Origin: Polyangiales bacterium
Lineage (GTDB): Bacteria; Myxococcota_A; Polyangia; Polyangiales; Ga0077539
NCBI GenBank assembly: GCA_044229975.1
Contig: JBGARZ010000009.1
Span: 91,947 to 155,946, forward strand
Direction: 5' to 3'
DNA: 64,000 nt
Position numbers and translations under genes: made by a program. Shown here one piece after another: positions 7,077 through 56,283 of the stretch; within the stretch, counting starts at the first letter, position 1, and every line of letters begins with the position of its first letter. Under the pieces are notes generated by a model that was given only the letters and a program-made list of their open reading frames with translations, did not search any database and was not told where the DNA came from.

Positions 7077-10000
7077 ATGATCAACCGATATGACTGCGCG
7101 CGGGTTCAAGAAGAGCTCGCGGCGCTGGCCGATGACGCCATCCCGGAAGAGGCCGCCGCGCACCTGGCCGGGTGCGACGACTGCCGCGACCTGCTCCACG
7201 ACGCGCGCATCGCCGCCCAGACGCTGCGAGGCGGAGCGGGCGCGGACTTCGTCGCGATGGACGGCGACGCGCTCGCCGCGAAGGTGCTCAGTGCCATCGA
7301 CGGGCGGATGTCGAAGGCGACGCCCGTGCACGGGACGCCGATGGCGGTGACCGTCGCGCAGACCTCACCCCCCAGCCCTCTCTCCCTGGCAGGAGAGGGG
7401 GAGCCGAAGGGAGAGGCACCTCTTCCCGTCGCTGTTCCTACGGCCGTTGCCTCTGCCTCTGGCTCCCCCTCTCCTGCCAGGGAGAGGGGGTTGGGGGGTG
7501 AGGTCTCGCCCCCAAAGGCGAGAGGTGAGGTCGCCCGTCGACGCATCGGCGCGTCCATCTGGGGCGCGGGGTTGTTCGCGGCGGCGGCGTCCGTGGCGGT
7601 CGTGGTGGTCGCGATGCGCGGCCCGTCGACGACACCCGCCAACGCGCCCGATGGCTCCTCGCCCGAGACGCCGCGCGGCCCCGTCGGGCCGTGGCACGCG
7701 ACGCTCGGCCGGGCGCTCGGCGCGGGCGTCGAGGTGAAGGCCGCGGGCGCGTCGGACTTCGCCGCGCTGCGTGAGCGCGGGGTCATCGGGCAGGGAGCGA
7801 CGGTACGCACCGACGCCCGCACCCGCGCCCGCATCGACCTCGACGACGGCACCGTGCTCGTCCTCGATCGCGCGACCACGCTGGTGCTCGACCCGAGCGC
7901 GCCACGCCACGCCCGCATCGTCGAGGGAACCCTCGTCGCCGACGTCGCCCACCGCGACGACGCCCCGCCCGCGGTGCTCACCACGGCGCAGGGAGACGTG
8001 CGGGTGCTCGGGACGAAGTTCGCCGTGAGCGCGTCCAACGATCACACCACCGTGCAGGTCACCCGCGGCGTGGTGCGGCTCGGCCAGGCGTCGAGCGACG
8101 GCGTCGAGGTGAAGACCGGCCAGGAGGCCGTGCTCGCCCGCGGTCAGGTGAGCGTGTCGCCGGCCGTCAACCTGGGCGGTCGCGTGGCGTGGTCGGAGCT
8201 CAACGCCCCCGACGACACCACCACCAGCTCCGGCCTCGGTGAGCTGCGCGCGCGCCGCCCCGGCAGCACCGCCGAACGCGATCAGGCCGTGCACCTCGCC
8301 GAGCATCAGGTGCGCGTTCGCATCGTCGGCAACGTGGCGCGCACCGAGATCGAGGAGGTGTTTCGCAACGACACGGGCAGCGAACTCGAAGGGCTCTACC
8401 GCTTTCCGCTGCCGCCCGAGGCGCAGGTGGAAGAGCTCGCCCTCGACGTCGACGGTCGCATGGAACCCGGCGCCTTCGTCGACCGCGACCGCGCGGCGGC
8501 CATCTGGCGCGGGGTCATCCACCACGCGGCGCCCAACACGCCGCCGCCGAGGGAGGAGTACGTCTGGGTGCCTGGTCCGTGGCGTGATCCGGCGCTGCTG
8601 GAGTGGCAGCGGGGTGGGCGCTTCGAGCTGCGGGTGTTTCCCATCCCGGCACGCGGCGCGCGGCGCGTGCGCATCGCGTACACGCAGACCATCGCGCCAT
8701 CGGGCGGCGGACTGCGGCGCTACGTCTACCCGCTGCCCCACGACCCGGGGGGGAGCACCCGCGTCGATCACATGAGCATGGACGTGCAGGTGCTCGGCCA
8801 CAGCGGGACGCAGCCCGCCCGCGTGCTGGGCTACCCCTTCGCGGCCGCCGACACCTCCGCCGCGGCCTCGCGGTGGACCTTCGCGCGCGACAACTTCACC
8901 CCGTCGGGCGACGTGGTGATGGAGTACGCGCTCGGCGACGCGACCGTGCCGGTGACGGCCTGGGGCTACGCCGAGCCGACCAACACCGAAGGGGCGTACG
9001 TGGCCCTCGCGCTGCGACCGCAGCTCCCGCGCTGGGGCGAGGCGAGGCCGCGGGACTACGTCTTCGTGGTCGACGCGAGCCGCTCCATGGTGGGCGAGCG
9101 CTACGCCCGCGCGACCCGTCTGCTCAGCTCCATCGTCTCGGAGATGGACCGCCGCGATCGGCTCACGGTGCTCGCCTGCGACGTTCGGTGCGTGGCGATG
9201 CGGGAGGGGATGGTCCCGGCGAGCGCGGAGGTGTCGCGGCAGGTGAGCGGGTGGTTGCAGGCGCGCGAGCCCGCCGGCGGGAGCGACCTCGGCGCGGCGG
9301 TGCGGGCGGCGGCGAGCGCGACGCGTTCGACCCCGGACGACCGCGACGTGCGCGTGGTGTACCTGGGCGACGGCGCGTCGACGGTGGGCCACCGGCGCCC
9401 GACGACGCTGGCGCTGGAGGTGACGACGGCGCTGCCCGCGCGCAAGGCGACGTTCACCGCGGTGGCGGTAGGAGCAGAAGCGGACACCACGACGCTCGCG
9501 GCGATGGCGCGGGCGGGTGGTGGGGTGGTGGTTCCGTACCTGCCGGGCGAGGCGAGGACGGGGGCGGCGCTCTCGGTGCTCGAAGCGACGTATGGGGCGG
9601 TGCTGCGCGACCCGGAGGTGACGCTGCCGTCGGGGCTGGTGTCCATGGCGCCAGCGCGACCCGACAACCTGCGCGCGGGCTCCGAGGCCGTCATCACGGC
9701 GCGGATGCTCCCCGGCGTGCGCGAGGTCGAGGGCGAGGTGGTGCTCCGCGGAACGGTCGCCGGCGAAGCCTTCGAGGCGCGCTACCCGATCACGGTGCGG
9801 GCGACGGAGGACGCGGGGAATGCGTTTGTTCCGCGGCTGTTTGGCGCGGCGCGCATCGCTGATCTCGAAGCGGGCGGCGAGCCCGGCGCGCGGGCCGAGA
9901 TGGTGGCGCTGTCGCAGCGGTTTCACCTGGCGAGCCGGTACACGTCGCTGCTGGTGCTGGAGAGCCCGGCGATGTTTCGCGCCTTCGGGGTGGAGCGCAC

Positions 10001-11466: not shown

Positions 11467-11487
11467 GGGGACGGTTTCAGCTTTTCA
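11467..11487. repeat. Left copy of a 21-bp inverted repeat (ggggacggtttcagcttttca) bracketing a ~3.5-kb insertion
   Basis: Its reverse complement occurs at 15011-15032 (gtgaaaagctgaaaccgtcccc), 21/22 identical. A 21-mer match is not expected by chance in 64 kb. Confidence 0.75.
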
Positions 11488-11571
11488 ACTTGTTAGGGCG
11501 CCGCAGCAAAGTGCTCGGGCTGAACGGGCGTAGGGTGTCCAGCGCTCGCCAGAGCTCCCAGGCAGTCGGGC

Positions 11572-12084
11572 ATGCAACTCGCGACCAACGTGACGAAGGT
11601 GTTGAAGGAGACGGCCGCCGCCTTGAAGGGCAGCGAACGTCGGCGGTTCATGGCGCGGACGGTGCGCGACCTGTTCGACGGCGTGATGAACCGAGCCGTT
11701 CGCGCGCTCGACTGGGACGAGCGGACGTTGCGCAAAGGCAAGAACGAGCTGCGCTCCGGGATCGAGTGCCTCGACGGTCGCTCCGGCGGCGGACGTCCGA
11801 CGGCGCAATCGCGACTGCCGAACCTGATGCGGGATCTGCGCGACCTCGTCGATGGTCAGAGTCAGACCGATCCGCGCTTTCAAACGCAGCGGCTCTACAC
11901 ACGCATCACGTCGGCCGAAGTCCGTCGGCAACTCATCGCGCAGAAGGGGTACACGGACGAGGAGTTGCCGTGTGAGGAGACGATCCGCGTCAAGCTCAAC
12001 GACCTGGGATATGGGCTGCGCGCCGTGGCCAAGACCAAGCCGAAAAAAAGGTCGCCGCGACGGACGCCATCTTCGAACAGATGA
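11572..12084 (+). CDS. Transposase orfA (N-terminal part of frameshifted ISAzo13-like transposase)
   Basis: 170 aa. Ends 3 codons after an A7 run (12043-12049, cgAAAAAAAgg). Confidence 0.6.
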   Translation: MQLATNVTKVLKETAAALKGSERRRFMARTVRDLFDGVMNRAVRALDWDERTLRKGKNELRSGIECLDGRSGGGRPTAQSRLPNLMRDLRDLVDGQSQTDPRFQTQRLYTRITSAEVRRQLIAQKGYTDEELPCEETIRVKLNDLGYGLRAVAKTKPKKRSPRRTPSSNR

Positions 12085-12794
12085 GTCGTGAGCGGGCGAC
12101 GGCCGCGCGTTCGCCCAACGTGCTGGAACTGTCGATGGACGCCAAGGCCGTCATCAAGGTGGGGGAGTTCTCTCGGTACGGCGTCAGTCGCGTGCTGGTG
12201 TTTGCGCTCGATCACGACCACGGGGCCGAGGCGAAGGTGACGCCGTACGGCATCCTGCTCACAGCCCACAACGAGCTGACGGTGTCTCTGGCGACGGGGC
12301 CCGTCACGGCGGACTTCATCGTCGATCGGATCGAGGCGTGGTGGTGCGCTCACCGGGCGCGCTTTCCGGAGGTCGATACGCTCCTTTTGCTTCAGGACAA
12401 CGGGCCCGAAAACCAGAGCCGTCGCACACAGTTTCTGTCGCGGATCGTGGCCTTTGCGCAGGCCCATCGGATCAACGTACGCCTCGCCTACTACCCGCCG
12501 TACCACAGCAAGTACAACCCCGTGGAGCGCTGCTGGGGCGTCCTCGAACAGCACTGGAATGGGAGCATCTTGGACACCGTGGAGACGGTCGTGAACTTCG
12601 CTCAGACCATGACCTGGAAAGGGGTCGCGCCCGTCGTGCAACTGGTCACCACGACGTACGCCAAGGGGATCTCGCTCACGCGTGCGGCGATGGCGAAAGT
12701 CGAGGCGCAGGTCCAGCGTCTCGCGGGCTTGGAAGCGTGGTTCGTGGAGATCCTCTGCGCGCCGAAGGCCGTGCGGGGCGACGGAGCGCACTGA
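12081..12794 (+). CDS. Transposase orfB (DDE catalytic part, in -1 frame relative to orfA)
   Basis: 237 aa with DHDHGAEAKVTPYG...LLLQDNGPEN...YYPPYHSKYNPVERCWGVLEQHWNG. Overlaps orfA by 4 nt. The -1 frame is open from the A7 run, so orfA and orfB together give about 400 aa. Confidence 0.6.
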   Translation: MSRERATAARSPNVLELSMDAKAVIKVGEFSRYGVSRVLVFALDHDHGAEAKVTPYGILLTAHNELTVSLATGPVTADFIVDRIEAWWCAHRARFPEVDTLLLLQDNGPENQSRRTQFLSRIVAFAQAHRINVRLAYYPPYHSKYNPVERCWGVLEQHWNGSILDTVETVVNFAQTMTWKGVAPVVQLVTTTYAKGISLTRAAMAKVEAQVQRLAGLEAWFVEILCAPKAVRGDGAH

Positions 12795-12835
12795 ACGCAC
12801 CAGCACCCCGACGAGAAAACTGCGACGCCCTTACT

Positions 12836-13131
12836 GGGAGCACCGGGTCTCGCCCGCGGATGGACTCCAGGTCGCCGATGAGGTCGCTGCCTCCGTAGAG
12901 GCCGATGCCGTAGAGGTTCTCGCCGCCGCGGTTGCGGAAGAGCGTCCCGCGCGCGGCGTTGACCAGCAGCCCGAAGCGCTCGCTCGCGGAGACCTCGTTT
13001 TCCACGAACTGCGTGTCGCCGCGGGTGCCGTTGAGGTGCATCCCGTCAGCCATGGTGACGCTCCCGCTCGACGTCACCAGGCGTGCCCATGAGGGTCCGC
13101 GAAATCGCTGTCGACAGTGACCATGGCGCAT
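12836..13131 (-). pseudogene. Possible 5' remnant of a gene truncated by the IS insertion
   Basis: Minus-strand ORF (MADGMHLNGTRGDTQFVENEVSASERFGLLVNAARGTLFRNRGGENLYGIGLYGG...) reads protein-like and has high GC. It runs uninterrupted into the right end of the IS, so its original C-terminus is missing. Confidence 0.3.
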
Positions 13132-13227
13132 GCGCCCACCATCAAGGCGTCACCCACCGGACCGCTGGTGACCGTAGCGAGAAGCGTTCTGGCGAGCGAG
13201 GCGGGGCGCGGCTCGATCAGGTGAGCG

Positions 13228-14541
13228 TTACCGAACCCGGATGATCCAATTCACGCTGGCGTTCAGGGGACGACTCTCGCCGCCACCCGCAGCCTGGACT
13301 GACACCGTAACGGGAAGGGGATGACGCGAAACACCCGCGTTACCGTTGTCGTGAAAGTTTCCGCCGGTCGAAAATCCATTTCGCATCTCGCTATTTCCAA
13401 TCGCTGTGCTCGAAAACGGATTTCCTCCCATCACCGCTGACGCCCCATGGTTGTGTGACCCGACCGCGCCAGACTGAACCGTGCCGACCGCGTCACCGCT
13501 CCGTCCTCCCGCTGCCATCGACGTGCGCCCGCCGCGATCTGGGTCACGTCCTGCGTTTAGATCTGCGCCGCGCAGGAAGTAGCCTCGGTAGTCAGGAAGG
13601 TTGAAGGTCAGAGCGTCTGGGGTGCCATGCGCGGTACCGATGGCCGTAAAAAGCCCAGGATAGCCGGTTCGAGAGAGGGGTCGGCCGTCGCAAAGCAACC
13701 AGCCCGAGGGAGGCGTGTCGCCCGCAAACGCAACAACTCCCCCGATCGGTGTCGTGACAGGTGGAGGCGCATCAACCTCCGCCGCCTCTGGGATGATAGT
13801 CACTAGAGCCCCACCCCCGGTCGAAACGACCAACTGCGCAGGGGGGGCAAAGATCCGCCGTCCTGGCGCAGCGCTCGGCGAACTTGCTACGCGTCGGCGA
13901 CACGACATTGACAGAAAGGAGTTGCCGATCATGGTCAGCTGACTCCTGGGTCCGGTAGGTTGATTCCGGCGCGCGTCCCAAAGTTCGCCAGCACACTGGA
14001 ATGCGTCATCGGGAATCACGCGAACGTCCTGAAGGCCGATGCCCGAAGTACCCGGGCCGTTATATGACAGAGCAAGCGTGACCAGATCCGATTCGCTCCC
14101 TGAAATGGTGCGCCTGAAGTGTAGTCCTTGTCGCTCCGCCTCGACGCAAGCTCGATAAGCTTGCATCGCATCAGGCGAGATGGTTTGGGTGAGCAGATCC
14201 TGCTCTTGCGCGGACATACTACGAGTGTCCGAGTTGGTGCACAGCGATCGCGCCAATGTCTCCAACTGAGCATACGACATACGAGCATCGACTCCGAAAA
14301 ACGGAGCGTCGACCATCACGCTTGCAGCGACGTTGGTTTGCGATAGTGACTGGTACGTCGAGCACATCGACTGCACCGCGGAGGAAGCTTGCTGCGCCGT
14401 ACTGCGGGTTCGGACGGAGTTGTACACCCCGAGCCGGAGTTGATCGACGCACGATGTATTGAGATTGTTTTGCGCACAGACCTCCACTGAGGAGATGAAT
14501 AGTGCCAGAGCTGTTACTATGGCGATTCCGAACTTGTTCAT
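13228..14541 (-). CDS. Secreted protein with C-terminal phage tail-collar domain (MdpB / tail-fibre-like)
   Basis: 437 aa. Signal peptide MNKFGIAIVTALALFISSVEVCAQ. C-terminus has the tail-collar motif (FAGDTPPSGWLLCDGRPLSRTGYPGLFTAIGTAHGTPDALTFNLPDYRGYFLRGADL...GSHNHG). GC is markedly lower than the flanks (many AT-rich stretches between 13.2 and 14.9 kb). Confidence 0.7.
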   Translation of the reverse strand: MNKFGIAIVTALALFISSVEVCAQNNLNTSCVDQLRLGVYNSVRTRSTAQQASSAVQSMCSTYQSLSQTNVAASVMVDAPFFGVDARMSYAQLETLARSLCTNSDTRSMSAQEQDLLTQTISPDAMQAYRACVEAERQGLHFRRTISGSESDLVTLALSYNGPGTSGIGLQDVRVIPDDAFQCAGELWDARRNQPTGPRSQLTMIGNSFLSMSCRRRVASSPSAAPGRRIFAPPAQLVVSTGGGALVTIIPEAAEVDAPPPVTTPIGGVVAFAGDTPPSGWLLCDGRPLSRTGYPGLFTAIGTAHGTPDALTFNLPDYRGYFLRGADLNAGRDPDRGGRTSMAAGGRSGDAVGTVQSGAVGSHNHGASAVMGGNPFSSTAIGNSEMRNGFSTGGNFHDNGNAGVSRHPLPVTVSVQAAGGGESRPLNASVNWIIRVR

Positions 14542-15010
14542 TCGCTACTCCGAAGATTGAGTGTTGCACTGGGAGCTTTGATCAGAGACCGACGCTAGTT
14601 GGTCGTCGCACAGGAGTCTTCAGCCGAGCGCACGGAATGTGATGTTGTGTGCACCGAAGTCGAGCACCATGCCTTTGGTATGGACTCAGCAGCCACCCGT
14701 AGCTCGGTGGTAGTCCGCTACGGGCTTCGCCGTCAAGTCCTCAAGTGAGCACGCGACCATCGCTCCTGACAAGCGAAAGTACCAAGTGCGTCTGAGCTTC
14801 TGGCGATACGTCGCAGCCGCAATGCTTCGCCCCCGCCACGCGCCACCTTCCCCCTACCTACGCGACAGCGACGATCGGCTCTTCGCCAACGTAACCCTAC
14901 CCATGTGCCCGCTTGGCGACGGCCGCTCCACGACACAATGATCGCTCTACCATTGGGTCTGGCGAGGCCGCGAAAACAGGTTCAGCTTTTCGCCTCTGCC
15001 CCAGCACAAC

Positions 15011-15032
15011 GTGAAAAGCTGAAACCGTCCCC
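15011..15032. repeat. Right copy of the 21/22-bp inverted repeat. A partial third copy (ggttcagcttttc, 14969-14981) forms a local hairpin with it
   Basis: gtgaaaagctgaaaccgtcccc is the reverse complement of 11467-11487. 14969-14981 can pair with 15013-15026 to give a 13-bp stem. Confidence 0.7.
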
Positions 15033-15038
15033 TCCCCC

Positions 15039-16268
15039 TCACCCGTACATCCACCGCCCGCGTTCGCCCGCCCGCCACTCGGCCATCCGCTCGCTCCCGA
15101 CCCTCATCAGCTCCTCCACGCTGGCCCCTGCGTCGATCCCCTCGCGCACCCGTTCGTCGCCGGTCAGCAGGTCCACCGCGGGCACGTCGTCGACGAACTC
15201 ATACCGCTCCGTCCGCCACCCGAAGCCCTCCATCCGTCGGCACGCCCGCAGCGCCGCCAAGTACGCCCGATACGGCGCAAACGCCCGCTCGTCCGTCACG
15301 TGCACCTGCACCCCCTGGCACGTCGCCCCCGCGTGCTTCTGGAACATCGGCCGGAAGCTCATCGCCCGCGCCGTCATCCCGCCACCGCCCTCGCTCATCA
15401 ACGCCGCCGCCAGCACCGCACCGTCCACCCACGGCGCGCCAAACACCTCGAACGGCCGCGTCGTCCCCCTGCCCTCCGACAGATTCGTCCCCTCCAACAA
15501 GCACCCGCCCGGATACACCACTGCCGTGTCCGGCGTCGGCATGTTGGGCGACGGCAGCACCCACAGCAGCCCCGTGTCCGCCCAGCGCATCGACCGCGCC
15601 CACCCCTCCATCGGCACCACCGTCACGTTCGCGAGCGACTCCTCCCGCGCGCGCCACGCCACCACCTCACCCAGCGTCAGCCCGTGCCGCACCGGAACCG
15701 CCTCCAACCCCACGAACGACCGCAACTCCGCCCGTTGCGGAGAGCCCTCCACCACGTCGCCACCCAGCGGGTTGGGCCGATCGCACACCAGCACCTCCAC
15801 TCCCTTCGCCGCGCACGCCCGCGCCATCAGCACGGCCGTCCACACGAAGGTGTAGTACCGCGAGCCCACGTCCTGGAGGTCGATGACCACGGCGTCCAAC
15901 CCGTCCAGCCACTCGCTCCGCGGCGTCAGCGACGAATACTCCGCCCCGTAAAGCGAGTACGCCCGCACACCGACTCCACCGCCGCCGTCCGCGACGCCCT
16001 CCATGTCCTGCGCCTCGCCGCCCACGCCGTGCTCCGGCCCGAAGAGCGCCGTCACCCGCGCGCCCGCCGCCGTCAGCACCTCCCGCGCGTGCCGCAGCTC
16101 CGACGTCACGCTCGCCGGGTGCGCCAGCAGCCCCACCGCGCGACCCCTCACCCGCCCGGTCTGCGCGGTCGCCAGCACCTCCAGGCCCGTTTGTACGCGC
16201 GCGCCCATCACAGCAACCCGTCGAGGATGCGCGTCAGCCGCTCGTCGCCGCCCGCGGGCGGTTCCCAC
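15039..16268 (-). CDS. DUF1343 family protein (NamZ-like exo-beta-N-acetylmuramidase family)
   Basis: About 400 aa. LQDVGSRYYTFVWT matches the DUF1343 'DIQDVGxRFYTY' signature. N-terminal extent is uncertain; an internal Met at residue 21 is possible. Confidence 0.55.
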   Translation of the reverse strand: MGTARGRRRAADAHPRRVAVMGARVQTGLEVLATAQTGRVRGRAVGLLAHPASVTSELRHAREVLTAAGARVTALFGPEHGVGGEAQDMEGVADGGGGVGVRAYSLYGAEYSSLTPRSEWLDGLDAVVIDLQDVGSRYYTFVWTAVLMARACAAKGVEVLVCDRPNPLGGDVVEGSPQRAELRSFVGLEAVPVRHGLTLGEVVAWRAREESLANVTVVPMEGWARSMRWADTGLLWVLPSPNMPTPDTAVVYPGGCLLEGTNLSEGRGTTRPFEVFGAPWVDGAVLAAALMSEGGGGMTARAMSFRPMFQKHAGATCQGVQVHVTDERAFAPYRAYLAALRACRRMEGFGWRTERYEFVDDVPAVDLLTGDERVREGIDAGASVEELMRVGSERMAEWRAGERGRWMYG

Positions 16269-16404
16269 GCCACTACCATCACGGCCACGCCCTCCGAGCG
16301 CGGCCCCTCCGCCAACGCCTCCAAGCCCAACTGAACCACTCCCGCTCTTACACCGAAGGTCCCGTACGCGTCCTGCTCGTGCTCGTCGTCTCTGCTCACG
16401 TCGC

Positions 16405-17946
16405 TCACCCTTCCTCCGGCAGCAGCGCCAGCGCCGCCGTCACCGCGGACGTGTGGTCGGGCATCACGTTCACCCCCAGCGCCGTGAGCGCCGCCACCAC
16501 CGTCGACCGCCGCTGCACGTCGTCGTCCGTCCCCACCACCACGGCCACCACCGAGATCTCGCCGCCTCGCGAACGCGATCGCTCCTTCACCGCCGTCAGC
16601 GCGTCGCGCATCGCGCCCACCGGGTCGGGCTGCGCGCCGTAGCCCAGCACCACGTCGAGCAGCAGCACCGCCACCGCCTCGTCGTTGGCCGCGTTGTAGA
16701 TCGCATCGACGCGCAGCGACGGATCCATCGCCGCCGGCGCGCGACCGCGCGTGTACTCCGCGTCGCCGAGGTCGAGCAGGTGGTGGCCCGCCATGCGGAA
16801 GCGCGAGCTGCGGGCGACGCCCTCTACGGACAGGTTCGTCGTCAGCGGCGCGAGGTGACGGCAGCGCTCGACGGCCTCCGCGCAGAGCGTTCCGCCCACG
16901 TACAACGCCCGCAGCCACCGTTGCGACGGCGCGTACGCCGGGCGCACCACCGACGGCATCACCCACGGTTCGACCCGCACGCCCGACGCCTCGGCCGCCC
17001 GCCACGCCGCGTCCGCGATGGACGTCGCCCAGGTCACACCCGCCACCGCTGGGAGCTTCGTCTCGCCCAACAGACACGCGACCACCGGCCGCCCCGTCGC
17101 CCCGGCCCGCTCCACCGCCCGCAGCGCCACCTCGCGCGAACACCGCCGCGCCAGCAGCACCAGCACCTTCGTCGATGCGTCGCTCGCGAGGCGATCGAGC
17201 GCCGTCAGCGTCGTGCGTCCGCCCACCGCCTCCGTGAGGTCGCGATCGCCCGTCCCGACCGCGTGCGACACGCCGGCGCCCAATCGGTGCAGCAGCGTGG
17301 TGAGCTCCTGCATGCCCGTCCCCGAGGCCGCGACCACGCCGACGTCCCCGCGCCTCAACGCGTTGGCGAAGCCCAGCGGAACCCCATCCAACAACGCCCC
17401 ACCACACTCCGGTCCCATCACCATCAACCCGCGCGCGTCGGCCAGGGTCTTGAGCGAGACCTCCTCCTCCACCGTCACGCCGTCGCTGGTCAGCAGCACC
17501 GAGAGGCCGTGCTCCAGCGCGCGCTTCGCCTCTCGCGCCGCGAAGGGACCCGGCACCGACACCACCGCCAGCCGACTCTCGGGCTGCCGCGCCAACGCCT
17601 GCGACAGCGTCCGCGGCGCGTCGTCCGACGGGACACCGTGACCCGCCAGCGCCCCTGCCACGGGGCGCGCCGAGAGCCACGCGTCGCAACGCTCGATGGC
17701 CGCCGTCGCCGCGGCGTCGTCGCGGGCCGTCAACAACACCAGCAGGTCGCCCGGCTTCGGCGTCGTGGGCCAATGGTCGGGCGCCATGCCCATCTTCCGC
17801 AGCACGTCCTGGTTGCCCGCCGTCCCCATCATCGCGACCACCCGCTGAACGCCGTCCAGCGTCTCGATGTGTCGGGTGAGCGCCAGCAGCGTTCCCGCGT
17901 CGCGGTACTCGCTCGCGCGAATCATCGCCCGCCGCGTCGCGCTCAT
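16405..17946 (-). CDS. FdrA family protein (CoA-binding, succinyl-CoA synthetase alpha-like)
   Basis: About 514 aa from the ATG at 17946 (MSATRRAMIRASEYRDAGTLL...). CoA-binding and ligase-CoA domains are present (VVAASGTGMQELTTLLHRLGAGVSHAVGTGDRD). Confidence 0.75.
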   Translation of the reverse strand: MSATRRAMIRASEYRDAGTLLALTRHIETLDGVQRVVAMMGTAGNQDVLRKMGMAPDHWPTTPKPGDLLVLLTARDDAAATAAIERCDAWLSARPVAGALAGHGVPSDDAPRTLSQALARQPESRLAVVSVPGPFAAREAKRALEHGLSVLLTSDGVTVEEEVSLKTLADARGLMVMGPECGGALLDGVPLGFANALRRGDVGVVAASGTGMQELTTLLHRLGAGVSHAVGTGDRDLTEAVGGRTTLTALDRLASDASTKVLVLLARRCSREVALRAVERAGATGRPVVACLLGETKLPAVAGVTWATSIADAAWRAAEASGVRVEPWVMPSVVRPAYAPSQRWLRALYVGGTLCAEAVERCRHLAPLTTNLSVEGVARSSRFRMAGHHLLDLGDAEYTRGRAPAAMDPSLRVDAIYNAANDEAVAVLLLDVVLGYGAQPDPVGAMRDALTAVKERSRSRGGEISVVAVVVGTDDDVQRRSTVVAALTALGVNVMPDHTSAVTAALALLPEEG

Positions 17947-19178
17947 CGCAGGCCCCGCTCGGACGCGAAATGCTCGATGGCCTTGGTGAAGCACTCCAGC
18001 GGAACCCTCGTGAGCCCCGCCCCCACGCCCGCCCGCCCCGCCTCGCGGTGCGCGATGGCCGCCCCGATCACCGGAAGTATCCCCGTGTCGAGCACCCGCC
18101 GCGCGTCGACGCCCACCGGCGCTCCCGCGGAGTCCAACGCCGCCACCGTGTACCGCGGGTGCCTCGCGACCGTGATCTCTCCCATGTCGAGCGTGACGCG
18201 CATCCCGTCCGCGTGCCGGGTGCCAAAGCGGGCATGCAACGCCGGCGCGCCCGCCAGCACGAAGGCCCCGAGCCCCGCCGTCTCGCCGATGGCCGAGTCA
18301 CCCACGTCGCCTCCCGCGTCGTCCCCCTCGACCCCGTCGGCGAGTCGTCCCCGCACCGTCGGCGCCAGGGCCGTAAACCAACGCTCGCCCGTCCCCGACA
18401 GCCGCACCCCGCAGCGCGCCCCGTTGCGGCTCATCGCCGTCACCACCGTGCTGTCCTCTACGCCGTGCGCCGCGTCGCACGCCAGTTTCGCCGCCGCCAG
18501 CGAGAGCGCCTGCGAGAGACCGCTCGCCGGGCCCTCGGCCCGCGCAAGGGCCGCCAGCGTCCCCGCGTGCGACAGCGCCGCGAGCAACCGCCCGTCCGCC
18601 GCCTGCGTGCGGTGCACCAGGTCGTCCCCCTCGTGCAGCGCCTCGGTCACCACGTCGTCGAAAAACACCCCGCCTCCCCGTCGCAGCGCGTCGTCCACGG
18701 CCGGCGCGAGGTCGTCTCGCCACGCGCGCCTCCGCCCCACGGCCTCGTCGTCGAAGGCCCCGAGGTCGGTGCGCGGCGACTCGATCAGCGCCCACGCCGT
18801 CGCCCCCTGACGCGTACCCGGCTCCCACTCCTCCACCACGCACACCGGGGTGTTGGGAGACCCGACGCCCGCGAGCGCGCCAACACCACCCGCGTGGTGG
18901 TTGGGACGCAGCGTGACCTCGGCCCGATCGAGCATCGCGCGCGCCTCGGCAGGCGTCGCGGCCCACCCCTCGAAGAGCACCGCGGCGAGGACCGCGCCCT
19001 GCTGCGCGCCGCCCATCTCCCGCCAGAGAATCGGCGGCCCGCTGTGGGTCAGCTCGTACGCTCCGAGGTCGAGCACCACGTCGCGCAGCGCACGTACACC
19101 GACCCAGCGGGCGCGGCTCGCCGTGAGCCGCCGGACGGCCTCGGCGTTGGCGTGGTCGATGCGATCGGCGAGCCTCAT
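17943..19178 (-). CDS. DUF1116 domain protein (YlbE/AllG-like partner of FdrA)
   Basis: About 412 aa. Stop overlaps the fdrA start by 4 nt. Likely start is MRLADRI (19178) with GGAG 10 nt upstream. Colocation with FdrA is typical. Confidence 0.65.
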   Translation of the reverse strand: MRLADRIDHANAEAVRRLTASRARWVGVRALRDVVLDLGAYELTHSGPPILWREMGGAQQGAVLAAVLFEGWAATPAEARAMLDRAEVTLRPNHHAGGVGALAGVGSPNTPVCVVEEWEPGTRQGATAWALIESPRTDLGAFDDEAVGRRRAWRDDLAPAVDDALRRGGGVFFDDVVTEALHEGDDLVHRTQAADGRLLAALSHAGTLAALARAEGPASGLSQALSLAAAKLACDAAHGVEDSTVVTAMSRNGARCGVRLSGTGERWFTALAPTVRGRLADGVEGDDAGGDVGDSAIGETAGLGAFVLAGAPALHARFGTRHADGMRVTLDMGEITVARHPRYTVAALDSAGAPVGVDARRVLDTGILPVIGAAIAHREAGRAGVGAGLTRVPLECFTKAIEHFASERGLR

Positions 19179-19293
19179 GGTGGGGCTCCGGGGGCTCTGA
19201 CTCATACGGATCCTTGTAAGCAATGGGCGGGCGGCGGGGCGGCGCCGCGATGGTACCCGAAACTCACGCTCCACCTGTGGTACCGGTTGAGCC

Positions 19294-20439
19294 ATGGGCT
19301 ACCTGTTCGAGACCGACGAGCACCGGGAGCTGCGCGCCCAGATGGAGCGCTTCGCCTCAGCGGAGATCGCGCCACACGCCGACGCGTGGGAAGAGGCCGA
19401 GGAGTTTCCGCGCGAGCTCTACACGAAGGCCGGATCGCTGGGGCTGTTGGGTCTCGGCTACCCCGAGGCGTACGGCGGCGGCGGGGGCGACCTCTCTCAC
19501 GTCGTCGCCGCGAGCGAGTCGATGGTGCTCGCGGGTCGCTCGGTGGGCGTCACCGTCGGCCTCGGGAGCCACGGCATCGCGCTGCCTCCCATCCTCCGAT
19601 CGGGGACGGAGGCGCAGAAGCAGCGGTGGGTTCCGCCGGTGGTGCGCGGGGAGAAGATCGCGGCGCTCGCCATCACGGAGCCCGGCGGCGGCAGCGACGT
19701 GGCCAACCTGAAGACGCGCGCCGAGCGGGTCGGCGATGAGCTGGTGATCAATGGGAGCAAGACGTTCATCACGTCGGGGGTGCGGGCCGACCTGGTGACG
19801 GTGGCGGTGCGAACGGGCGGCAGCGGGCACGGCGGCGTGTCGCTGGTGGTGGTCGAGCGCGGCACCCCGGGGTTTACCGTGGGTCGTAAGCTGAAGAAGA
19901 TGGGCTGGTGGGCGTCGGACACGGCGGAGCTGCACTTCGAGGACTGCCGCGTGCCGATGGAAGACGTCGTCGGCGAGGTCGACCAGGGCTTCGTGACGAT
20001 CATGCAGAACTTCGCGACGGAGCGGGTGTTTCTCGCGGCGCAGTGCGTGGCCATCGCGACGCTCGCGTACCAGGAGTCGGTCGCGTACGCGCGGGAGCGG
20101 GTGGCGTTTGGGAAGCCGCTGAGCGGCTTTCAGGTGACGCGGCACAAGCTGGCGGAGATGGCGACGCGCATCGCGGCGGCGCGGGCGCTGACGGGCGAGG
20201 TGGTGACGCGGGTGATGGCCGGCGACGTCGCGGCGACGGGCATGGCGGCGATGGCGAAAAACGTCGCGACGGACATGTGCAGCGCGGTCTGCGACGAGGC
20301 GGTGCAGATACACGGCGGGTACGGCTACATGCGCGGCTACCTGGTCGAGCGGCTCTACCGCGACGCGCGGCTGTACCCGATTGGGGGTGGCACGCGCGAG
20401 ATCATGAATGAGATCATCGGCAAGCTCGAAGGGTATTGA
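19294..20439 (+). CDS. Acyl-CoA dehydrogenase
   Basis: 381 aa with canonical ACAD N-terminal, middle and C-terminal domains (ALAITEPGGGSDVANLKTRAERVGDELVINGSKTFITSG; catalytic region IHGGYGYMRGYLVERLYRDARLYPIGGGTREI). Confidence 0.9.
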   Translation: MGYLFETDEHRELRAQMERFASAEIAPHADAWEEAEEFPRELYTKAGSLGLLGLGYPEAYGGGGGDLSHVVAASESMVLAGRSVGVTVGLGSHGIALPPILRSGTEAQKQRWVPPVVRGEKIAALAITEPGGGSDVANLKTRAERVGDELVINGSKTFITSGVRADLVTVAVRTGGSGHGGVSLVVVERGTPGFTVGRKLKKMGWWASDTAELHFEDCRVPMEDVVGEVDQGFVTIMQNFATERVFLAAQCVAIATLAYQESVAYARERVAFGKPLSGFQVTRHKLAEMATRIAAARALTGEVVTRVMAGDVAATGMAAMAKNVATDMCSAVCDEAVQIHGGYGYMRGYLVERLYRDARLYPIGGGTREIMNEIIGKLEGY

Positions 20440-20468
20440 GCACAACGGCTGAGGGAGACAGTGACGAC

Positions 20469-21416
20469 ATGAGCAAGAAGATCATCGCGGTGACCGGCGC
20501 CACGGGCGCGCAGGGCGGCGGCCTCGCCCGCGCCATTCTCGACGACGCCTCCGGGGAGTTCACGCTGCGCGCCATCACGCGCAAGCCCGACAGCGACAAG
20601 GCTCGCGCGCTCGCCGACCGCGGCGCCGAGGTGGTGGCCGCCGACCTCGACGACCAGGCCAGCCTGGAGAGGGCCTTCGCGGGCGCGTATGGGGCGTTCT
20701 GCGTGACCAACTTCTGGGAGCACTTCTCGGGCGAGAAGGAGACCGCGCAGGCCCGCTCGCTCGCGGCGGCGGCGAAGGCCGCGAAGGTCTCGCACGTGAT
20801 CTGGTCGACCTTCGAGGACACGCGCGACCTGGTGCCCCTCTCCGACGACCGGATGCCGACGCTCCACGGGAAGTACAAGGTCCCGCACTTCGACTCGAAG
20901 GGAGAGGCGAACAGCGCCTTCACCGGGTCGGGCGTGCCCACGACGCTGCTGCTCACGTCGTTCTATTGGGACAACCTGATCCACTTCGGGATGGGGCCGA
21001 AGAAGGGCGCCGACGGAAAGCTGTCGTTCGTGCTGCCGATGGCCGACAAGAAGCTCCCGGGCATCGCCGCGGGCGACATCGGCGGCTGCGCCTACGGCGT
21101 CTTCAAGCGGGGCACCGAGTTCCAGGGGAAGACCGTCGGCGTGGCGGGCGAGCACCTCACCGGCGACCAGATGGCGGCGGCGCTCTCGCAGGCGCTGGAG
21201 CAGCCCGTCTCCTACGCGTACGTCCCGCCGGAGGTGTACCGCACGTTCGGGTTCCCGGGCGCCGACGACCTGGGCAACATGTTCCAGTACAAGCGTGACT
21301 TCGAGACGCAGTACTGCGGCGCCCGCGACGTCGCCCTCTGCCGCTCGCTCAACCCGGGCCTCCAGACCTTCGCGCAGTGGCTCTCGCGCCACAAGGCGCA
21401 GATCACGGTCGGCTGA
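20469..21416 (+). CDS. NmrA-family NAD(P)-binding protein
   Basis: Start MSKKIIAVTGATGAQGGG (Rossmann GxxGxxG) with GAGGGAGA upstream. NmrA/HSCARG-like fold throughout. Confidence 0.8.
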   Translation: MSKKIIAVTGATGAQGGGLARAILDDASGEFTLRAITRKPDSDKARALADRGAEVVAADLDDQASLERAFAGAYGAFCVTNFWEHFSGEKETAQARSLAAAAKAAKVSHVIWSTFEDTRDLVPLSDDRMPTLHGKYKVPHFDSKGEANSAFTGSGVPTTLLLTSFYWDNLIHFGMGPKKGADGKLSFVLPMADKKLPGIAAGDIGGCAYGVFKRGTEFQGKTVGVAGEHLTGDQMAAALSQALEQPVSYAYVPPEVYRTFGFPGADDLGNMFQYKRDFETQYCGARDVALCRSLNPGLQTFAQWLSRHKAQITVG

Positions 21417-21460
21417 CAGAGAGCCCTCTCATTCAAGCGGGCGGTGATGTTGTCCGCCCG

Positions 21461-21707
21461 GACGCCGGAGTTCGCGTGCCCCCATGAGGCGGGGTGCAGT
21501 CGCTCACTCCGGGCTATTTCAGGTCGTCACCCCGCGACGCGGGGTTGCAGAGAATCCGCTCGTCTTCACGCCTGTGATGGGTTTGTTGAGTGAGTGGCCG
21601 CGGACACGACCCTGACCCTGCAACCCCGCGTCGCGGGGTGACGACCTGAAATAGCCCGGAGTGAGCGACTGCACCCCGCCTCATGGGGGCACGCGAACTC
21701 CGGCGTC
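21461..21707. repeat. 247-bp near-perfect palindrome (about 90-bp arms, about 67-bp loop); family copy 1
   Basis: Arms 21461-21550 and 21618-21707 are exact reverse complements (gacgccggagttcgcgtgcccccatgaggcggggtgcagtcgctcactccgggctatttcaggtcgtcaccccgcgacgcggggttgcag). Lies between the convergent genes ending at 21416 (+) and 21736 (-). Confidence 0.9.
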
Positions 21708-21735
21708 CACCGGACGAGATCACCAACCACTCAAA

Positions 21736-22383
21736 TCAGGGCACCACCGACACCGTCCGCCGGGCCACCACGTGGCCGTCCCACTCCAGCACCAGCCGAT
21801 ACTCTCCGGGCGCGGGCATCAGCGCTTCGATGATGGTTCGCGCGTCGCGCACGACGTGCCCAGCCGGGAGATCGAACCACTCGTTGACCCGCGGCCCGTT
21901 GCCAAAGGCCAGGTCGAACACCTGCGACGGAACCCCGTTGACCAGCAGCCGCAGACGATCGCGCTCGGGCTGCACCACACCGGATGAATTGTTGGTCGCG
22001 GAGATCTCCAGGCGGGTCGTCGCTCGCGCGCTCATGCGGATGCCGTCGGAGAGCGTGAGGTGCCACGTAAGCAGCGCCACCGCGGGCGGCAACGGAGTGG
22101 GGCGCGGCCGCGGCGGAGCGCCGTACGGAGCGACGATGGCGGGGTGCGCTTCGACGTACGCATCGGCGCGCGGCGGCGGGTTGGCGAGGGCCGCGCCGCG
22201 CTCGCATCCGGTGAGGGTGAGCGACGCCCCGAGGGCGACGAGCGCCGCACGCGACGCCCCGCGGGGAAGCTCCAACGACGGTGCGTCGTGAGTCACCACA
22301 AGCGCCGCGCAGAAGGGGCACCGCGCGTCCGTGGAGCGCACGTGCCGCGAGCATCCGACACACACCACCAGCATCGTCGACAT
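21736..22383 (-). CDS. Hypothetical protein with N-terminal zinc ribbon (CxxC...CxxC), a TM segment and a Pro-rich linker
   Basis: 215 aa from the ATG at 22383 (MSTMLVVCVGCSRHVRSTDARCPFCAALVV...). The upstream part of the track ORF is noise. Confidence 0.45.
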   Translation of the reverse strand: MSTMLVVCVGCSRHVRSTDARCPFCAALVVTHDAPSLELPRGASRAALVALGASLTLTGCERGAALANPPPRADAYVEAHPAIVAPYGAPPRPRPTPLPPAVALLTWHLTLSDGIRMSARATTRLEISATNNSSGVVQPERDRLRLLVNGVPSQVFDLAFGNGPRVNEWFDLPAGHVVRDARTIIEALMPAPGEYRLVLEWDGHVVARRTVSVVP

Positions 22384-22449
22384 GGCGGGCGATGATACGC
22401 GAGGGCCCGGTGGCACCACCCGATTCAGCGTGATAGTCGGACACCGGTC

Positions 22450-23154
22450 ATGGGGATTCCGTCGCTCGACAGCCCGGAGGTGCAGCGGCTCTCCATCCGG
22501 GAGGCGATCCAGCCGCAGCTCGCGCGGCTGCTGCTTCTCGTGGGTGGAGTCACCGACGCGAAGATGAAGCTCGCCATCGGTGGAGCGGTCGCCGCGCGTG
22601 ACGCCGGGTGGAGGCGCTACACCGACGACCTCGACGTCTTCGCCCGCCCCGTGAGCGCGAAGCGGCTCGTGCGCGCGCTGGCCGCCGAGGGGATGAAGAC
22701 CTTCTGGATCACCGACTCCCACGGCGTCGCGTGGCTCGAAGAGGACAACGCCGCGACCACCGCCAAGGGCGAGGCGCCCGCCGTCCGCATCGACGTGGTC
22801 AGCACCATCACCGAGCTCGAAGCCAGGGCGATCCGCACGGCCGTTGAAGCGCGCACCCTCGGCGTGCCGGTGAAGGTCTTTCGCCCCGACCATCTTGCGG
22901 CGATCAAGTTCCTCGCCGGGCGGCCGCTCGATCTCATCGACTTCGATGAGCTCATCCGACTCGGCGTCGACCTCGAACGGGTGCGCTTCATCGTCGCCAC
23001 CGCCGACGAGACCCGGGTGGCCGCGGTGATGTCCCGCGGGCGCCGTGCGCTCAAGCCGCCAGGAGTGCGAGAGAAGCAGGTCCCCTATCTCGGTCGCGCG
23101 GCCCTCGATGAAGCGTGGAAGGCGACCGCCGCCACCCGTCAGCGCTCTTCGTAG
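22450..23154 (+). CDS. Nucleotidyltransferase-fold protein (MNT/AbiEii-like motif), hypothetical
   Basis: 234 aa. KLAIGGAVAARDAGWRRYTDDLDVF fits the G[GS]x9-13Dx[DE] minimal nucleotidyltransferase signature. Family assignment is tentative. Confidence 0.4.
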   Translation: MGIPSLDSPEVQRLSIREAIQPQLARLLLLVGGVTDAKMKLAIGGAVAARDAGWRRYTDDLDVFARPVSAKRLVRALAAEGMKTFWITDSHGVAWLEEDNAATTAKGEAPAVRIDVVSTITELEARAIRTAVEARTLGVPVKVFRPDHLAAIKFLAGRPLDLIDFDELIRLGVDLERVRFIVATADETRVAAVMSRGRRALKPPGVREKQVPYLGRAALDEAWKATAATRQRSS

Positions 23155-23688
23155 TCAGGCCGACCCGCGCCCTTCCAGCACCGCGCAGTCGTCCATCGCG
23201 TCGACCATGATCGCGACCTCCTGCATCAGGTAGCGCCCCGGCCCCTGCGTCCCGCACGAGCCACACCCCGCCATCGCCGCCTGCGACGCCGCGTACATCT
23301 CCCTTGCGCGCCGCGGGTCGCCCGCGCACGCCTCGGCCAGCACCGCCAGCGCCGCCGTCTCGCCGCACCCGCCGTCGAGCGTGCGGGCCGCCTCGGCCAG
23401 CGCCGGAAGCGCGTCGTAGCGCTCCACCCGCGCGGCCATCACGGCGAGTGAGACCACGGCGTTTTTCCGTCGCAGCGTCGCCGGGTCGACGTCGTCGAGC
23501 AGCGCGTCGAGCGACGAGCGCGCCGCGGCCGGATCTTCGCCGAAGCCGAAGCCCTCCCACGCGGCCTCCACCCGCTCGTCGGCGGTGGGTCCATCGGTCG
23601 CCTTCTTGTGGTCGTGGCGCTTGTTGATCCACGACACGACCGCGGTCAGCAGCACCAACCCCATCACCAGCGCGACTGCGTTTTCCAT
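23155..23688 (-). CDS. Hypothetical single-pass membrane protein with C-terminal CGSCG motif
   Basis: About 177 aa from the ATG at 23688 (MENAVALVMGLVLLTAVVSWI...). A short TPR-like helical region follows. Confidence 0.4.
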   Translation of the reverse strand: MENAVALVMGLVLLTAVVSWINKRHDHKKATDGPTADERVEAAWEGFGFGEDPAAARSSLDALLDDVDPATLRRKNAVVSLAVMAARVERYDALPALAEAARTLDGGCGETAALAVLAEACAGDPRRAREMYAASQAAMAGCGSCGTQGPGRYLMQEVAIMVDAMDDCAVLEGRGSA

Positions 23689-23764
23689 GATGTCTGGCGG
23701 CGTTGGTACCACGAGCGATGGCGCTGTTGGCGGCCGCCACCTCCGGTACTCTCGCGGGCTCGTG

Positions 23765-24451
23765 ATGCGATCCACCCTGGTCCGTTGGCTCACCCCAGAG
23801 CGCCGCCGCGTACTGTGGGTGCTGCTCGCCTCGGTGGTGTTTCGCTACCTGTGCGTGAAGCTGATGATCGCCCTGTCGCTCTGGGCCGAGCGGCAGCCCG
23901 CGCCCACGTTGGCCGACGCCCTCGTCGACCGCATCCCGCTCGTCCCGTGGATGGACAACGTCAACTACCTCGTGTGGGGTCTCGGGTTTGTTCCGGTGTC
24001 GCTGGTGATGCTCTTCACCGACCCGTCGCGCTACGCCCGCTACTCGGTGACCGACGGCATCCTCTCCGCCGTGCGCGGGTGCTGCGTGGCCGTCACCAGC
24101 CTCGGCCCCGTGCGCGGGATGAACCACGCCGCGGCGGTCGCAGCCAACACCAACGGCCTCACCATGGCGGCGGCGCCGGTCAACGGTGCGCTCGCGGAGT
24201 CCAGGCAGCTCTTCCTCACGCACGACATGTTCTTCTCGGGTCACACGGCGACGACGTTCTTGCTGCTGCTGTACGTGATGCGCGCGCCACGGCTGCGGGC
24301 GGCGATGGTCGTCACGCACGTCGCGGTGGTGGTGACGCTGCTCTTCGGTCACATGCACTACACCATCGACATCATCGGGGCGTGGGCGGTGACCTTCACC
24401 GTGTTCTGGCTGCGCGAGGGCGACGTGCGGGCATTCCTACGCGGCGGGTGA
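23765..24451 (+). CDS. PAP2-superfamily membrane protein (sphingomyelin-synthase-like PAP2_C)
   Basis: About 228 aa, multi-TM. Catalytic motifs FFSGHTATTFLLLLY and HYTIDIIGAW (SGH...HxxxD). 3' end overlaps the convergent kinase gene by about 15 nt. Confidence 0.6.
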   Translation: MRSTLVRWLTPERRRVLWVLLASVVFRYLCVKLMIALSLWAERQPAPTLADALVDRIPLVPWMDNVNYLVWGLGFVPVSLVMLFTDPSRYARYSVTDGILSAVRGCCVAVTSLGPVRGMNHAAAVAANTNGLTMAAAPVNGALAESRQLFLTHDMFFSGHTATTFLLLLYVMRAPRLRAAMVVTHVAVVVTLLFGHMHYTIDIIGAWAVTFTVFWLREGDVRAFLRGG

Positions 24452-39988: not shown

Positions 39989-39991
39989 CTT

Positions 39992-43093: not shown

Positions 43094-43097
43094 CCCG

Positions 43098-43439: not shown

Positions 43440-43450
43440 CCCCGCCCGAG

Positions 43451-43710
43451 GCCGCTGCGCCCGCGGGCCGGAGTTCGCGTGACCCCATTGCGGGTGCGTG
43501 CAGTCGCTCACGCCGGGCTATTTCACGGGGTCACCTCGCTGCGCGAGGTTGCAGGAACTCTCGATCGGCGATGGACGAGGCGACGGGTTGCTCGTTGAGA
43601 CCAGAGCTGCAACCTCGCGCAGCGAGGTGACCCCGTGAAACAGCCCGGCGTGAGCGACTGCACGCACCCGCAATGGGGTCACGCGAACTCCGGCCCGCGG
43701 GCGCAGCGGC
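43451..43710. repeat. 260-bp near-perfect palindrome; family copy 2 (same family as 21461-21707)
   Basis: Arms share the blocks ccggagttcgcgtg, tgcagtcgctcac and ccgggctatttca with copy 1. The inner stem differs (cacctcgctgcgcgaggttgcag versus caccccgcgacgcggggttgcag), but each copy remains self-complementary. Lies between the convergent genes ending at 43439 (+) and 43716 (-). Confidence 0.9.
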
Positions 43711-43715
43711 CCTCC

Positions 43716-44591: not shown

Positions 44592-44671
44592 GGCCGTCGG
44601 GTCTTCTACCGTATGCCGCAACATTTAGCGCCCTTGCCGGTGCTGCGGCGTGAGCGTATGTCGCCCGCACC

Positions 44672-56221: not shown

Positions 56222-56283
56222 CCGTGGCCGCCGCGGGTTGAAAACCCACGGCAGCCGGGCGCGACGTCAAGACGACAGGGAGA

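Follow-up and report, generated by a model that had tools for sequence, protein, structure and literature searches.

The perfect palindrome between two convergent genes of a Polyangiales bacterium is the inner part of a 304 bp insertion (copy 1), which sits on a TCA stop codon in the 10 nt gap that separates these genes. The insertion very probably represents a lineage-restricted family of non-coding, non-autonomous mobile palindromes of the Polyangiales (Myxococcota), which are MITE-like in kind and REPIN-like in symmetry. In members of the family, a core arm of 85 nt and an oriented loop of about 52-67 nt are conserved; the outer arms vary, yet they are palindromic as well. This is selfish DNA of a familiar kind in a new family, not a new regulatory device. 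The whole stretch of DNA that was analysed, 64 kb in length, is referred to as the window.

Copy 1 and its empty sites

The repeat search defined two arms of 91 nt (21460-21550 and 21618-21708), which are 100% complementary and are separated by 67 nt. The perfect palindrome is thus 249 bp long and extends one base further at each end than the previously noted region (21461-21707). The original prediction of a near-perfect palindrome with exact arms of about 90 bp and a 67 nt loop holds, and the true element is larger, as an imperfect inverted repeat continues beyond the perfect arms to a full extent of 304 bp (21432-21735). When the insert is aligned with its own reverse complement, the outer ~28 nt show 7 mismatches and 1 indel, and the ends are palindromic to the last base (TTCAAGCGGGCGGTGAT... 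/ ...ATCACCAACCACTCAAA). Such a repeat had been called far beyond chance, and this is also our estimate: at 71% GC, about 2e-41 arm pairs of this kind are expected in the 64-kb window.

The left neighbour of copy 1 is an NmrA-family ORF on the forward strand (20469-21416), the homologues of which carry PF05368. The convergent ORF to its right, which ends at 21736 on the reverse strand, is Cys-rich and has CxxC...CxxC motifs. An NmrA-family and a zinc-ribbon gene had been named as neighbours; the convergent ends at 21416 and 21736, PF05368 and the CxxC motifs support this assignment, while the right ORF has no Pfam match. Copy 1 has the following features.

21429..21431, forward strand: left flanking TCA, a putative 3-bp target-site duplication (comparison with empty sites)
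21432..21735, no strand: whole element, 304 bp, present in the window and absent from related genomes (junctions read directly and aligned)
21432..21459, no strand: left outer arm, imperfect, starts with TTCAAGCGG; with homology to its counterparts in L036 and L032
21460..21550, no strand: left perfect arm, 91 nt, of which 21467-21550 is the family-defining core that starts with GGAGTTCGCGTG
21528..21547, no strand: small internal hairpin of the left arm, hp2 (CACCCCGCG-ACG-CGCGGGGTTG), from the fold of a single arm
21551..21617, forward strand: loop, 67 nt, not palindromic, with weak homology to the loops of other copies
21618..21708, no strand: right perfect arm, 91 nt (repeat search)
21621-21640: mirror image of hp2 in the right arm (coordinates computed)
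21709..21735, no strand: right outer arm, imperfect, ends with ...CCACTCAAA (self-alignment)
21736..21738, forward strand: right flanking TCA, which is the stop codon (TGA on the reverse strand) of the convergent gene (comparison with empty sites)

As the loops are homologous among copies and are not palindromic, the element has an orientation.

Empty sites were found in two relatives. No record matched the NmrA protein of the window exactly; a protein search with it led to a syntenic contig of GCA_044228995.1 (L015), in which the NmrA gene has 97% nucleotide identity to the window. The second relative is represented by ten Logan contigs (L020-L029) with 92% nucleotide identity in the NmrA gene. 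In both, the same convergent genes are only 9-10 nt apart, and exactly the 304 bp are missing. The flanks align without interruption on either side, window 15006-21431 with L015 4519-10961 and window 21736-23785 with L015 10959-13007. All empty sites read ...CCCTC TCA GGGCACC..., while the junction in the window reads ...CCCTC TCA (304 bp) TCA GGGCACC.... The single TCA of L015 and L020 is thus present on both sides of copy 1, as for a target-site duplication compared with its empty site. As the right TCA serves the downstream gene as stop codon, that gene is left intact. The third codon positions of the NmrA gene are 94% identical between the L015 lineage and the window and, given the empty sites in these relatives, copy 1 was inserted after the split from the closest sampled relative.

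A family of copies in one Polyangiales lineage

A second family member had been proposed at 43451-43710. It is indeed present, at 43450-43711, and again lies between convergent genes (43011-43439 on the forward strand and a ThiF/TcdA-type gene at 43716-44624 on the reverse strand).

43450..43711, no strand: copy 2, with arms 43450-43554 and 43607-43711 (105 nt, 1 mismatch, 99% complementary) and loop 43555-43606 (52 nt)
43470-43554 and 43607-43691: family core of copy 2
43450-43469 and 43692-43711: outer arms specific for copy 2, 20 nt each

The four arms of copies 1 and 2 have a common core of 85 nt, which starts with GGAGTTCGCGTG and ends with GGTTGCAG. No further copy, not even a diverged one, was detected in the 64-kb window beyond these two.

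A survey of further copies and their contexts, which had been proposed as a check, yielded, besides the two window copies, at least 7 distinct loci, all in organisms closely related to the source. Most of these are at contig ends. The two-block arm pattern occurs in six contigs, all from the JGI metagenome Ga0075163. Five of the six break inside the element, and a complete copy is found in L036. Contigs that end inside a repeat are the usual sign that the repeat has broken a short-read assembly. When 185,579 species-representative genomes were probed with one exact 19-base core pattern (GCAGTCGCTCACNCCGGGCT), no true copy was found: the 14 loci obtained are all single chance matches of 20-24 nt that have no second arm. 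There was also no match in plasmids, either with the element or with the TTCAC end of the insertion sequence described below (similarity search), or in viral contigs (exact two-block arm motif). A protein search with a chance ORF that crosses the element returned a single spurious gene call from 5.8 billion proteins, and the same one hit from 1.84 billion representatives. The literature searched contains no description of a Myxococcota repeat or MITE of this type. On the sequence data covered, the repeat family thus appears in only one narrow Polyangiales lineage. The assignment of this lineage to the Polyangiales (Myxococcota) follows the names that TcdA homologues carry.

Copies range from 262 to 304 bp, with arms of 85-120 nt. 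Compared with one another and with copy 2, the arms in the relatives show 93-98% identity, but only 84-87% to copy 1, which thus represents a separate subfamily. In L036 and L032, the outer arms have homology to the outer arms of copy 1 (TCA followed by TTCRRGCG...), and L034 has the mirror form (TGA followed by TTCG...). In the remaining copies, including copy 2, the outer sequences are short or different, yet they are palindromic. Conservation within the repeat family is lowest in the outermost sequences, the opposite of a typical MITE, the termini of which are transposase binding sites. For 6 of the 8 copies that have a readable flank, a stop codon is found within 0-20 nt; the copies in L031 and L032 are upstream of genes, not downstream. 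In L032 the loop is expanded to at least 10 tandem copies of a 12-nt unit (GTCGATGGACGA), which run off the contig end and are of uncertain true length and reality. L036 carries, in addition, another TCA-flanked palindrome. A TIR motif shared with that palindrome (TGTCCGYYGG) was considered and dropped, as it has no support in the window.

In most respects the copies correspond to MITEs. They are short (262-304 bp, with <~500 bp for MITEs) and non-coding, with stop codons in all three outward-reading frames of the arm and only chance ORFs crossing the element. Terminal inverted repeats reach both ends of the 304 bp insert and match at 111 of 112 positions in L036. The elements are dispersed and multicopy (2 in the window and at least 7 loci in relatives). 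A target-site duplication is seen for copy 1 by comparison with the empty site; in L036, TCA is found on both sides (2064-2066 and 2348-2350), and no duplication is seen for copy 2. The long-form ends in L032 and L034 likewise adjoin TCA or TGA. Among the readings first offered for the palindrome, that of a REP/MITE-type mobile element is the one supported by the precise empty sites in two lineages, the TCA duplication and the copies elsewhere. Copy 2 and several of the metagenome copies have neither the TTCRRGCG ends nor a recognizable duplication, and the mobile unit may thus differ among copies.

We propose that the element would be moved in trans by a transposase encoded elsewhere. A search for the element ends at other positions of the 64-kb window, as expected for an autonomous partner, gave no match. 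When 33 ORFs or ORF segments from the window were compared to Pfam, the only transposase was of the ISAzo13-type DDE family, and it belongs to a 3.5-kb island that is unrelated and has other ends. A staggered cut of 3 bp, with a preference for TNA-type targets, is made by some IS5-group and Harbinger-type DDE transposases and would fit the TCA/TCA flanks. Insertion of the IS200/IS605 type shows target preference without duplication; a single-strand insertion next to TCA by an HUH/RAYT-type enzyme would fit the flanks as well. A 3-bp repeat is too short to tell a duplication from a TCA-specific target, and TCA at every readable end could mean target preference without duplication.

The element might accordingly be REPIN-like: a RAYT/IS200-type HUH tyrosine transposase would move it as a hairpin of single-stranded DNA, and TCA would be the target and cleavage sequence. 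We consider this unlikely. REPINs have two conserved inverted ends, a less conserved spacer and arm changes that stay complementary (PMC3116915), and the symmetric layout and complementary arm changes of our family resemble them. Each arm has a small REP-like hairpin, all long-form ends that can be read have the same TCA, as suits a target that is sequence-specific, and a genuine REP-like unit exists in the genome (56232-56256) and forms an inverted doublet in contig L051. Against this stands the size: a REPIN is a hairpin of ~100 nt made of two inverted REP units of 20-40 nt, while the arms measure 85-120 nt and the elements 260-304 bp, about three times as much. Singlet arms were not seen, and none of the 33 window ORFs or ORF segments scanned with Pfam has the Y1-transposase domain of RAYTs. 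REP hairpins carry a GTAG or CGTC tag at their foot (PMC3733652); CGTC precedes hp2 in copy 1 only, and all other copies have GGTC, so that there is no consistent tag. Finally, the first candidate for an arm hairpin varies without compensation. A structured small RNA in each arm was dropped as a candidate, as a hypervariable patch (columns 13-26 in an alignment of 12 arms) is uncompensated, hp2 shows only one compensated change and the local RNA or ssDNA structure of a single arm is not significant (z = -1.8 relative to shuffled sequences).

Probable exchange between arms and possible turnover at the TcdA junction

The arms match nearly perfectly within each copy (91/91 in copy 1, 104/105 in copy 2, and 111/112 in L036), while different copies deviate from each other by 2-16%. 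At the site of copy 2, eight contigs from relatives (L037-L044), which represent five kinds of data set, have a copy directly after the TcdA stop codon, and every contig ends inside the element. TcdA orthologues that have the element (96% protein identity) come from JGI, an ENA wastewater metagenome, Logan and an NCBI MAG. Copy 2 and the same-site copy of the more distant relative C show 4 differences in the arm, and all four are present in both arms of copy 2. Three of these are in the readable part of the second arm of C, and the C variant is found in both C arms. One difference alone is found in one arm but not in the other. The loops match at 46 of 52 positions (88%) only after one of them has been reverse-complemented; aligned without this step, they give a negative score.

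With 95% in the arms and 88% in the flipped loop, identity is at or above that of the third codon positions of TcdA (83%), as would be expected for an old orthologous copy. If the same-site copy of C is orthologous, copy 2 is probably older than the split from this lineage.

The simplest account is recombination between two close inverted repeats of 85-105 nt, in which a crossover would flip the loop while conversion would homogenize the arms. The same process at the repeat boundary would let the palindrome erode or grow at its edges. This could account for the imperfections at the extremes of copy 1, and also for the additional 19-20 palindromic nt on each side of copy 2, which are absent from C on the TcdA side. 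It had been suggested that the palindrome is a recombination site. There is no more than a grain of truth in this: the loop of copy 2 is inverted with respect to the same-site copy of a relative, and another insertion sequence uses the arm hairpin as a target.

A different palindrome is found at the TcdA junction of GCA_044228995.1 (L051, relative B). It has arms of 59 nt (5137-5195 and 5223-5281) that are 97% complementary. A REP-like hairpin in its arm has a single counterpart in the window (56232-56256, likewise flanked by convergent genes), and this unit forms the inverted doublet of L051 (5137-5281). Relative B does not have the last three TcdA codons, which are shared by the window and lineage C. 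It retains GCAACGGCC followed by TCG where the outer arm of copy 2 in the window ends with GCAGCGGCC followed by TCG. The family element may have been replaced by the other palindrome in the lineage of relative B, but the evidence is thin. A derivation of the 20-nt outer arms of copy 2 from the palindrome of relative B was considered and rejected, as the similarity is short (CCGCGGG, GCAxCGGCC). The matching sequence is better read as a remnant of a window-type outer arm that relative B has kept after replacement, since the replaced segment also removes the three TcdA codons common to the window and C.

The arm hairpin is itself a target. In four contigs (L031, L034, L035, and L040), hp2 (CCTCGC-TGC-GCG^AGG) is interrupted by a sequence that starts with TTCACYTCGGGACACA, which could be read for only ~60-140 nt as the contigs end there. 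In L034 this element is in the second arm and in mirrored orientation. The copy interrupted in L040 is the TcdA-linked one; in L043, which comes from a similar type of sample, this copy is intact. All four interrupted hairpins have an extra C (ACC-C-TCGC) that is found in none of the 9 intact arms. The same IS end is located inside an unrelated hairpin (CCCTCTCCC-AAAA-GGG^) in contigs from a more distant lineage (L045-L050). A candidate explanation was that the arms are terminal repeats of this TTCAC element, from which the palindrome would derive by internal deletion. It was rejected for two reasons: the IS of L034 begins only after one full arm, the loop and a portion of the other arm, and the same IS end occurs in the unrelated hairpin of L045-L050.

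These observations could be joined into a bolder picture, to which we give only little credence. The family would be a self-homogenizing 'foldback' mobile element, in which flip-flop recombination together with gene conversion keeps the arms identical and the palindrome erodes or grows into the flanks. Hp2 would serve as landing pad for a hairpin-specific IS, and different palindromic elements would replace one another at the same convergent-gene junctions. The element might even move as a single-stranded hairpin, by an enzyme not yet linked to such large substrates.

The copies at the TcdA junction could also be independent insertions of different masters into a hot spot, with the arms being perfect because each transposition would restore the whole palindrome from a single arm. 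Loop orientation and the presence of 19-20-nt outer arms differ between copy 2 and the copy of relative C, and the different palindrome at the same site in relative B indicates that the site turns over. Nonetheless, such an origin is improbable, as identity of arms and flipped loop relative to the TcdA third positions is what orthology predicts, the junction on the TcdA side is within a few nt of the same position, and recombination of inverted repeats of 85-105 nt suffices for both the flip and the homogenization.

Folding, function, and comparison with known elements

Folding of each strand had been recommended as a check, and the whole element indeed forms one very stable hairpin on either strand (RNA -268 and -272 kcal/mol, DNA -160 kcal/mol, z from about -23 to -25). 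At the gathering score, Rfam 15 has no family for the element and detects only two tRNAs in the whole window. With a relaxed E-value, there are only sub-threshold matches to eukaryotic miRNA-precursor hairpin models, which is generic behaviour of long hairpins.

With such a hairpin on either strand, and with both window copies and most others located just after stop codons and often between convergent genes, the primary role could be that of a bidirectional terminator or 3′-end RNA stabilizer that is selected to insulate convergent genes. This is improbable. An intrinsic terminator combines a GC-rich hairpin with a U-tract, and copy 1 does not have this combination: in the region 21000-22200 there is no U-tract terminator, no terminator-like match and no sigma-70-like promoter, and no T run follows either arm. 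Close relatives keep the same gene pair at 9-10 nt without a hairpin, so that a terminator role is not required and the element is dispensable. In addition, the copies in L031 and L032 are upstream of genes, and the element of L040 is interrupted by an IS at a site where a relative has it intact. The post-stop placement is equally explained by purifying selection elsewhere: convergent genes can be 10 nt apart and few spots tolerate 300 bp, so that in a tightly packed genome the copies would survive only where this length is harmless, between convergent genes. A terminator or RNA-stabilizing effect is plausible as a by-product. A transcript that reads in from either gene would form a perfect RNA hairpin of ~110 bp, which could stall or protect 3′ ends, as a side effect of the insertion and not its cause.

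That the palindrome is a unique assembly artefact, a collapsed or chimeric inverted duplication, had been named as the finding that would overturn the original prediction, and the breaks of the relatives' short-read assemblies within the element attest that it is hard to assemble; such an artefact is next to impossible, as the family occurs in independent JGI, ENA, Logan, and NCBI assemblies, L036 is complete with unique flanks, each copy in the window is bounded by unique sequence and contains a conserved loop that is not palindromic, and the insert has defined ends and a flanking repeat.

The mobile palindromes form a repeat family not described before, from an uncultured lineage of the Polyangiales that has been little studied, and provide a reason why short-read assemblies break at particular gene ends in these organisms. 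In compact form they offer a natural case of arms that evolve in concert, of a spacer that is inverted, and of a hairpin that serves as IS target. For annotation they carry a warning, as neither ORFs nor 'terminators' should be called across such elements. The general view of bacterial gene regulation is unchanged by this family.

Large inverted repeats, such as those of chloroplasts and the palindromes of sex chromosomes, undergo gene conversion from arm to arm and an 'ebb and flow' at their boundaries. Our elements resemble them in having arms that are near-identical despite divergence between copies, an inverted spacer, and edges that are variable but palindromic. They differ in scale, ~100 nt compared to kilobases, and in that the process is deduced here from three lineages only.

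Closer in size are the palindromic MITEs (review: PMC3184786), namely the Correia elements of Neisseria, the enterobacterial ERIC/IRU elements, and the Rickettsia palindromic elements. They have in common with our family that they are short, non-coding and multicopy, have inverted-repeat ends, a short flanking duplication and insertion polymorphism, are intergenic near gene ends, and give rise to a long transcript hairpin. In contrast to these, the arms of the Polyangiales elements are far longer (85-120 nt) and essentially perfect within a copy, and the conserved part is internal while the termini are variable but palindromic. Furthermore, our family was seen in one narrow lineage only and has no known matching full-length IS. 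The loop expansion by a 12-nt unit in L032 recalls a Porphyromonas gingivalis MITE that contains a minisatellite (PMC4596501), with sequence and host being unrelated.

With REPINs (PMC3116915), the family shares symmetric halves with maintained complementarity, extragenic dispersal, a small hairpin in each half, and a possible alternative clover-like fold. Unlike REPINs, it is about threefold larger, does not have the GTAG/CGTC tag, was not seen as singlets, and is not accompanied by a RAYT in the window. It is flanked by a TCA repeat, while no duplication is described for REPINs.

Its hairpin has a counterpart in REP sequences, which are specific targets of insertion sequences such as ISPa11, ISPpu9/10, and ISRm19/22 (PMC1525189); in the IS110/IS1111 group, insertion is directed by a guide RNA (PMC11187229). 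The TTCACYTCGGGACACA element resembles both in using the same hairpin position in four independent copies. Unlike for the REP-targeting insertion sequences, its target is a hairpin inside a larger mobile palindrome and not a free-standing REP.

Insertion sequence in palindrome-arm hairpins

The small hairpin inside each arm of the palindrome family is interrupted, in four independent copies, by an insertion sequence starting with TTCACYTCGGGACACA. Three of these copies are on contigs of metagenome Ga0075163 (L031, L034, L035) and one is in L040, a relative with a TcdA-linked palindrome. All four interrupted arm hairpins contain an extra C, which intact arm hairpins lack. The same insertion sequence occurs in a more distant TcdA lineage (L045-L050), there within an unrelated hairpin, CCCTCTCCC-AAAA-GGG^. 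Its readable part is the first ~60-140 nt, where all of its contigs stop.

L031 4955-, in palindrome arm
L034 116-1, (-), in palindrome arm
L035 107-1, (-), in palindrome arm
L040 1624-, in palindrome arm
L045-L047 7412-, in unrelated hairpin
L050 3256-, in unrelated hairpin

The hairpin targeted in L045-L050 is very similar to a different palindrome of the window, which lies in-frame within the gene at 7077-11450 and, once translated, forms a linker in the encoded 1457-aa FecR/VIT/VWA protein. The contig of GCA_044228995.1 with the empty site for copy 1, L015, has this palindrome at the equivalent position, together with additional partial copies.

7360-7506, palindrome AGACCTCACCCCCCAGCCCTCTCTCCC..., 59-nt arms, 92% complementary

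Variation among copies and differences from L015

On metagenome contig L032 (1-105), the palindrome loop has grown to at least 10 tandem 12-nt units of GTCGATGGACGA and runs past the contig end. The unit is present one and a half times at this position in other copies. Downstream of TcdA in L045-L050 (TcdA 87% identical), the main palindrome family is absent; about three tandem ~55-nt repeats (GGACGGAGGCGCACATGGGGGCCATGAGCGGGTGGGTTGCGTT...) are found 90-330 nt past the TcdA stop.

The window carries an island that is not present in L015, and L015 has two additional genes (402 and 1602 aa) missing from the window, with otherwise syntenic surroundings. The only Rfam matches in the window at gathering score are two adjacent tRNA genes.

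11469-15005, island of 3.5 kb with reduced GC content (56-68%) and with TTTCAGCTTTTC / GAAAAGCTGAAA in inverted orientation at its boundaries
11572-12084 and 12081-12794, ISAzo13-type DDE transposase of the island, split over two ORFs
13228-14541, - strand, 437-aa island protein with phage tail-collar domain
23785/23786 and 24436-24447, sites of the extra genes (L015 13007-14229 and 14890-19777)
27385-27456 and 27482-27552, + strand, tRNA genes

Further palindromic and inverted-repeat families

A third inverted-repeat family has two window copies, both devoid of any ORF. Its repeats flank a 149-aa PD-(D/E)XK (PDDEXK_3) gene in L031 (1440-1995), suggesting that the copies in the window are gene-less derivatives.

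2512-2636 (71-nt loop) and 39894-39989 (44-nt loop), with GGCCGCAAGGGCGCAAGGGTCGCAAGG arms
56232-56256, REP-like hairpin unit CGCGGGTTGAAAACCCACGGCAGCC, one occurrence, between convergent genes 54335-56221 and 56284-58176
L036 839-1016, palindromic element with TCA at both ends (TCA|GGCCTGTCCGTTGG...CCAACGGACAGGCC|TCA)

The REP-like unit recurs in GCA_044228995.1 (L051 5137-5281) as an inverted doublet with 59-nt arms, at exactly the position that copy 2 occupies in the window. Most of the TCA-flanked element, from a metagenome contig that also carries a complete palindrome copy, is unrelated to the main family. Several palindromic families may be mobilised by one enzyme.
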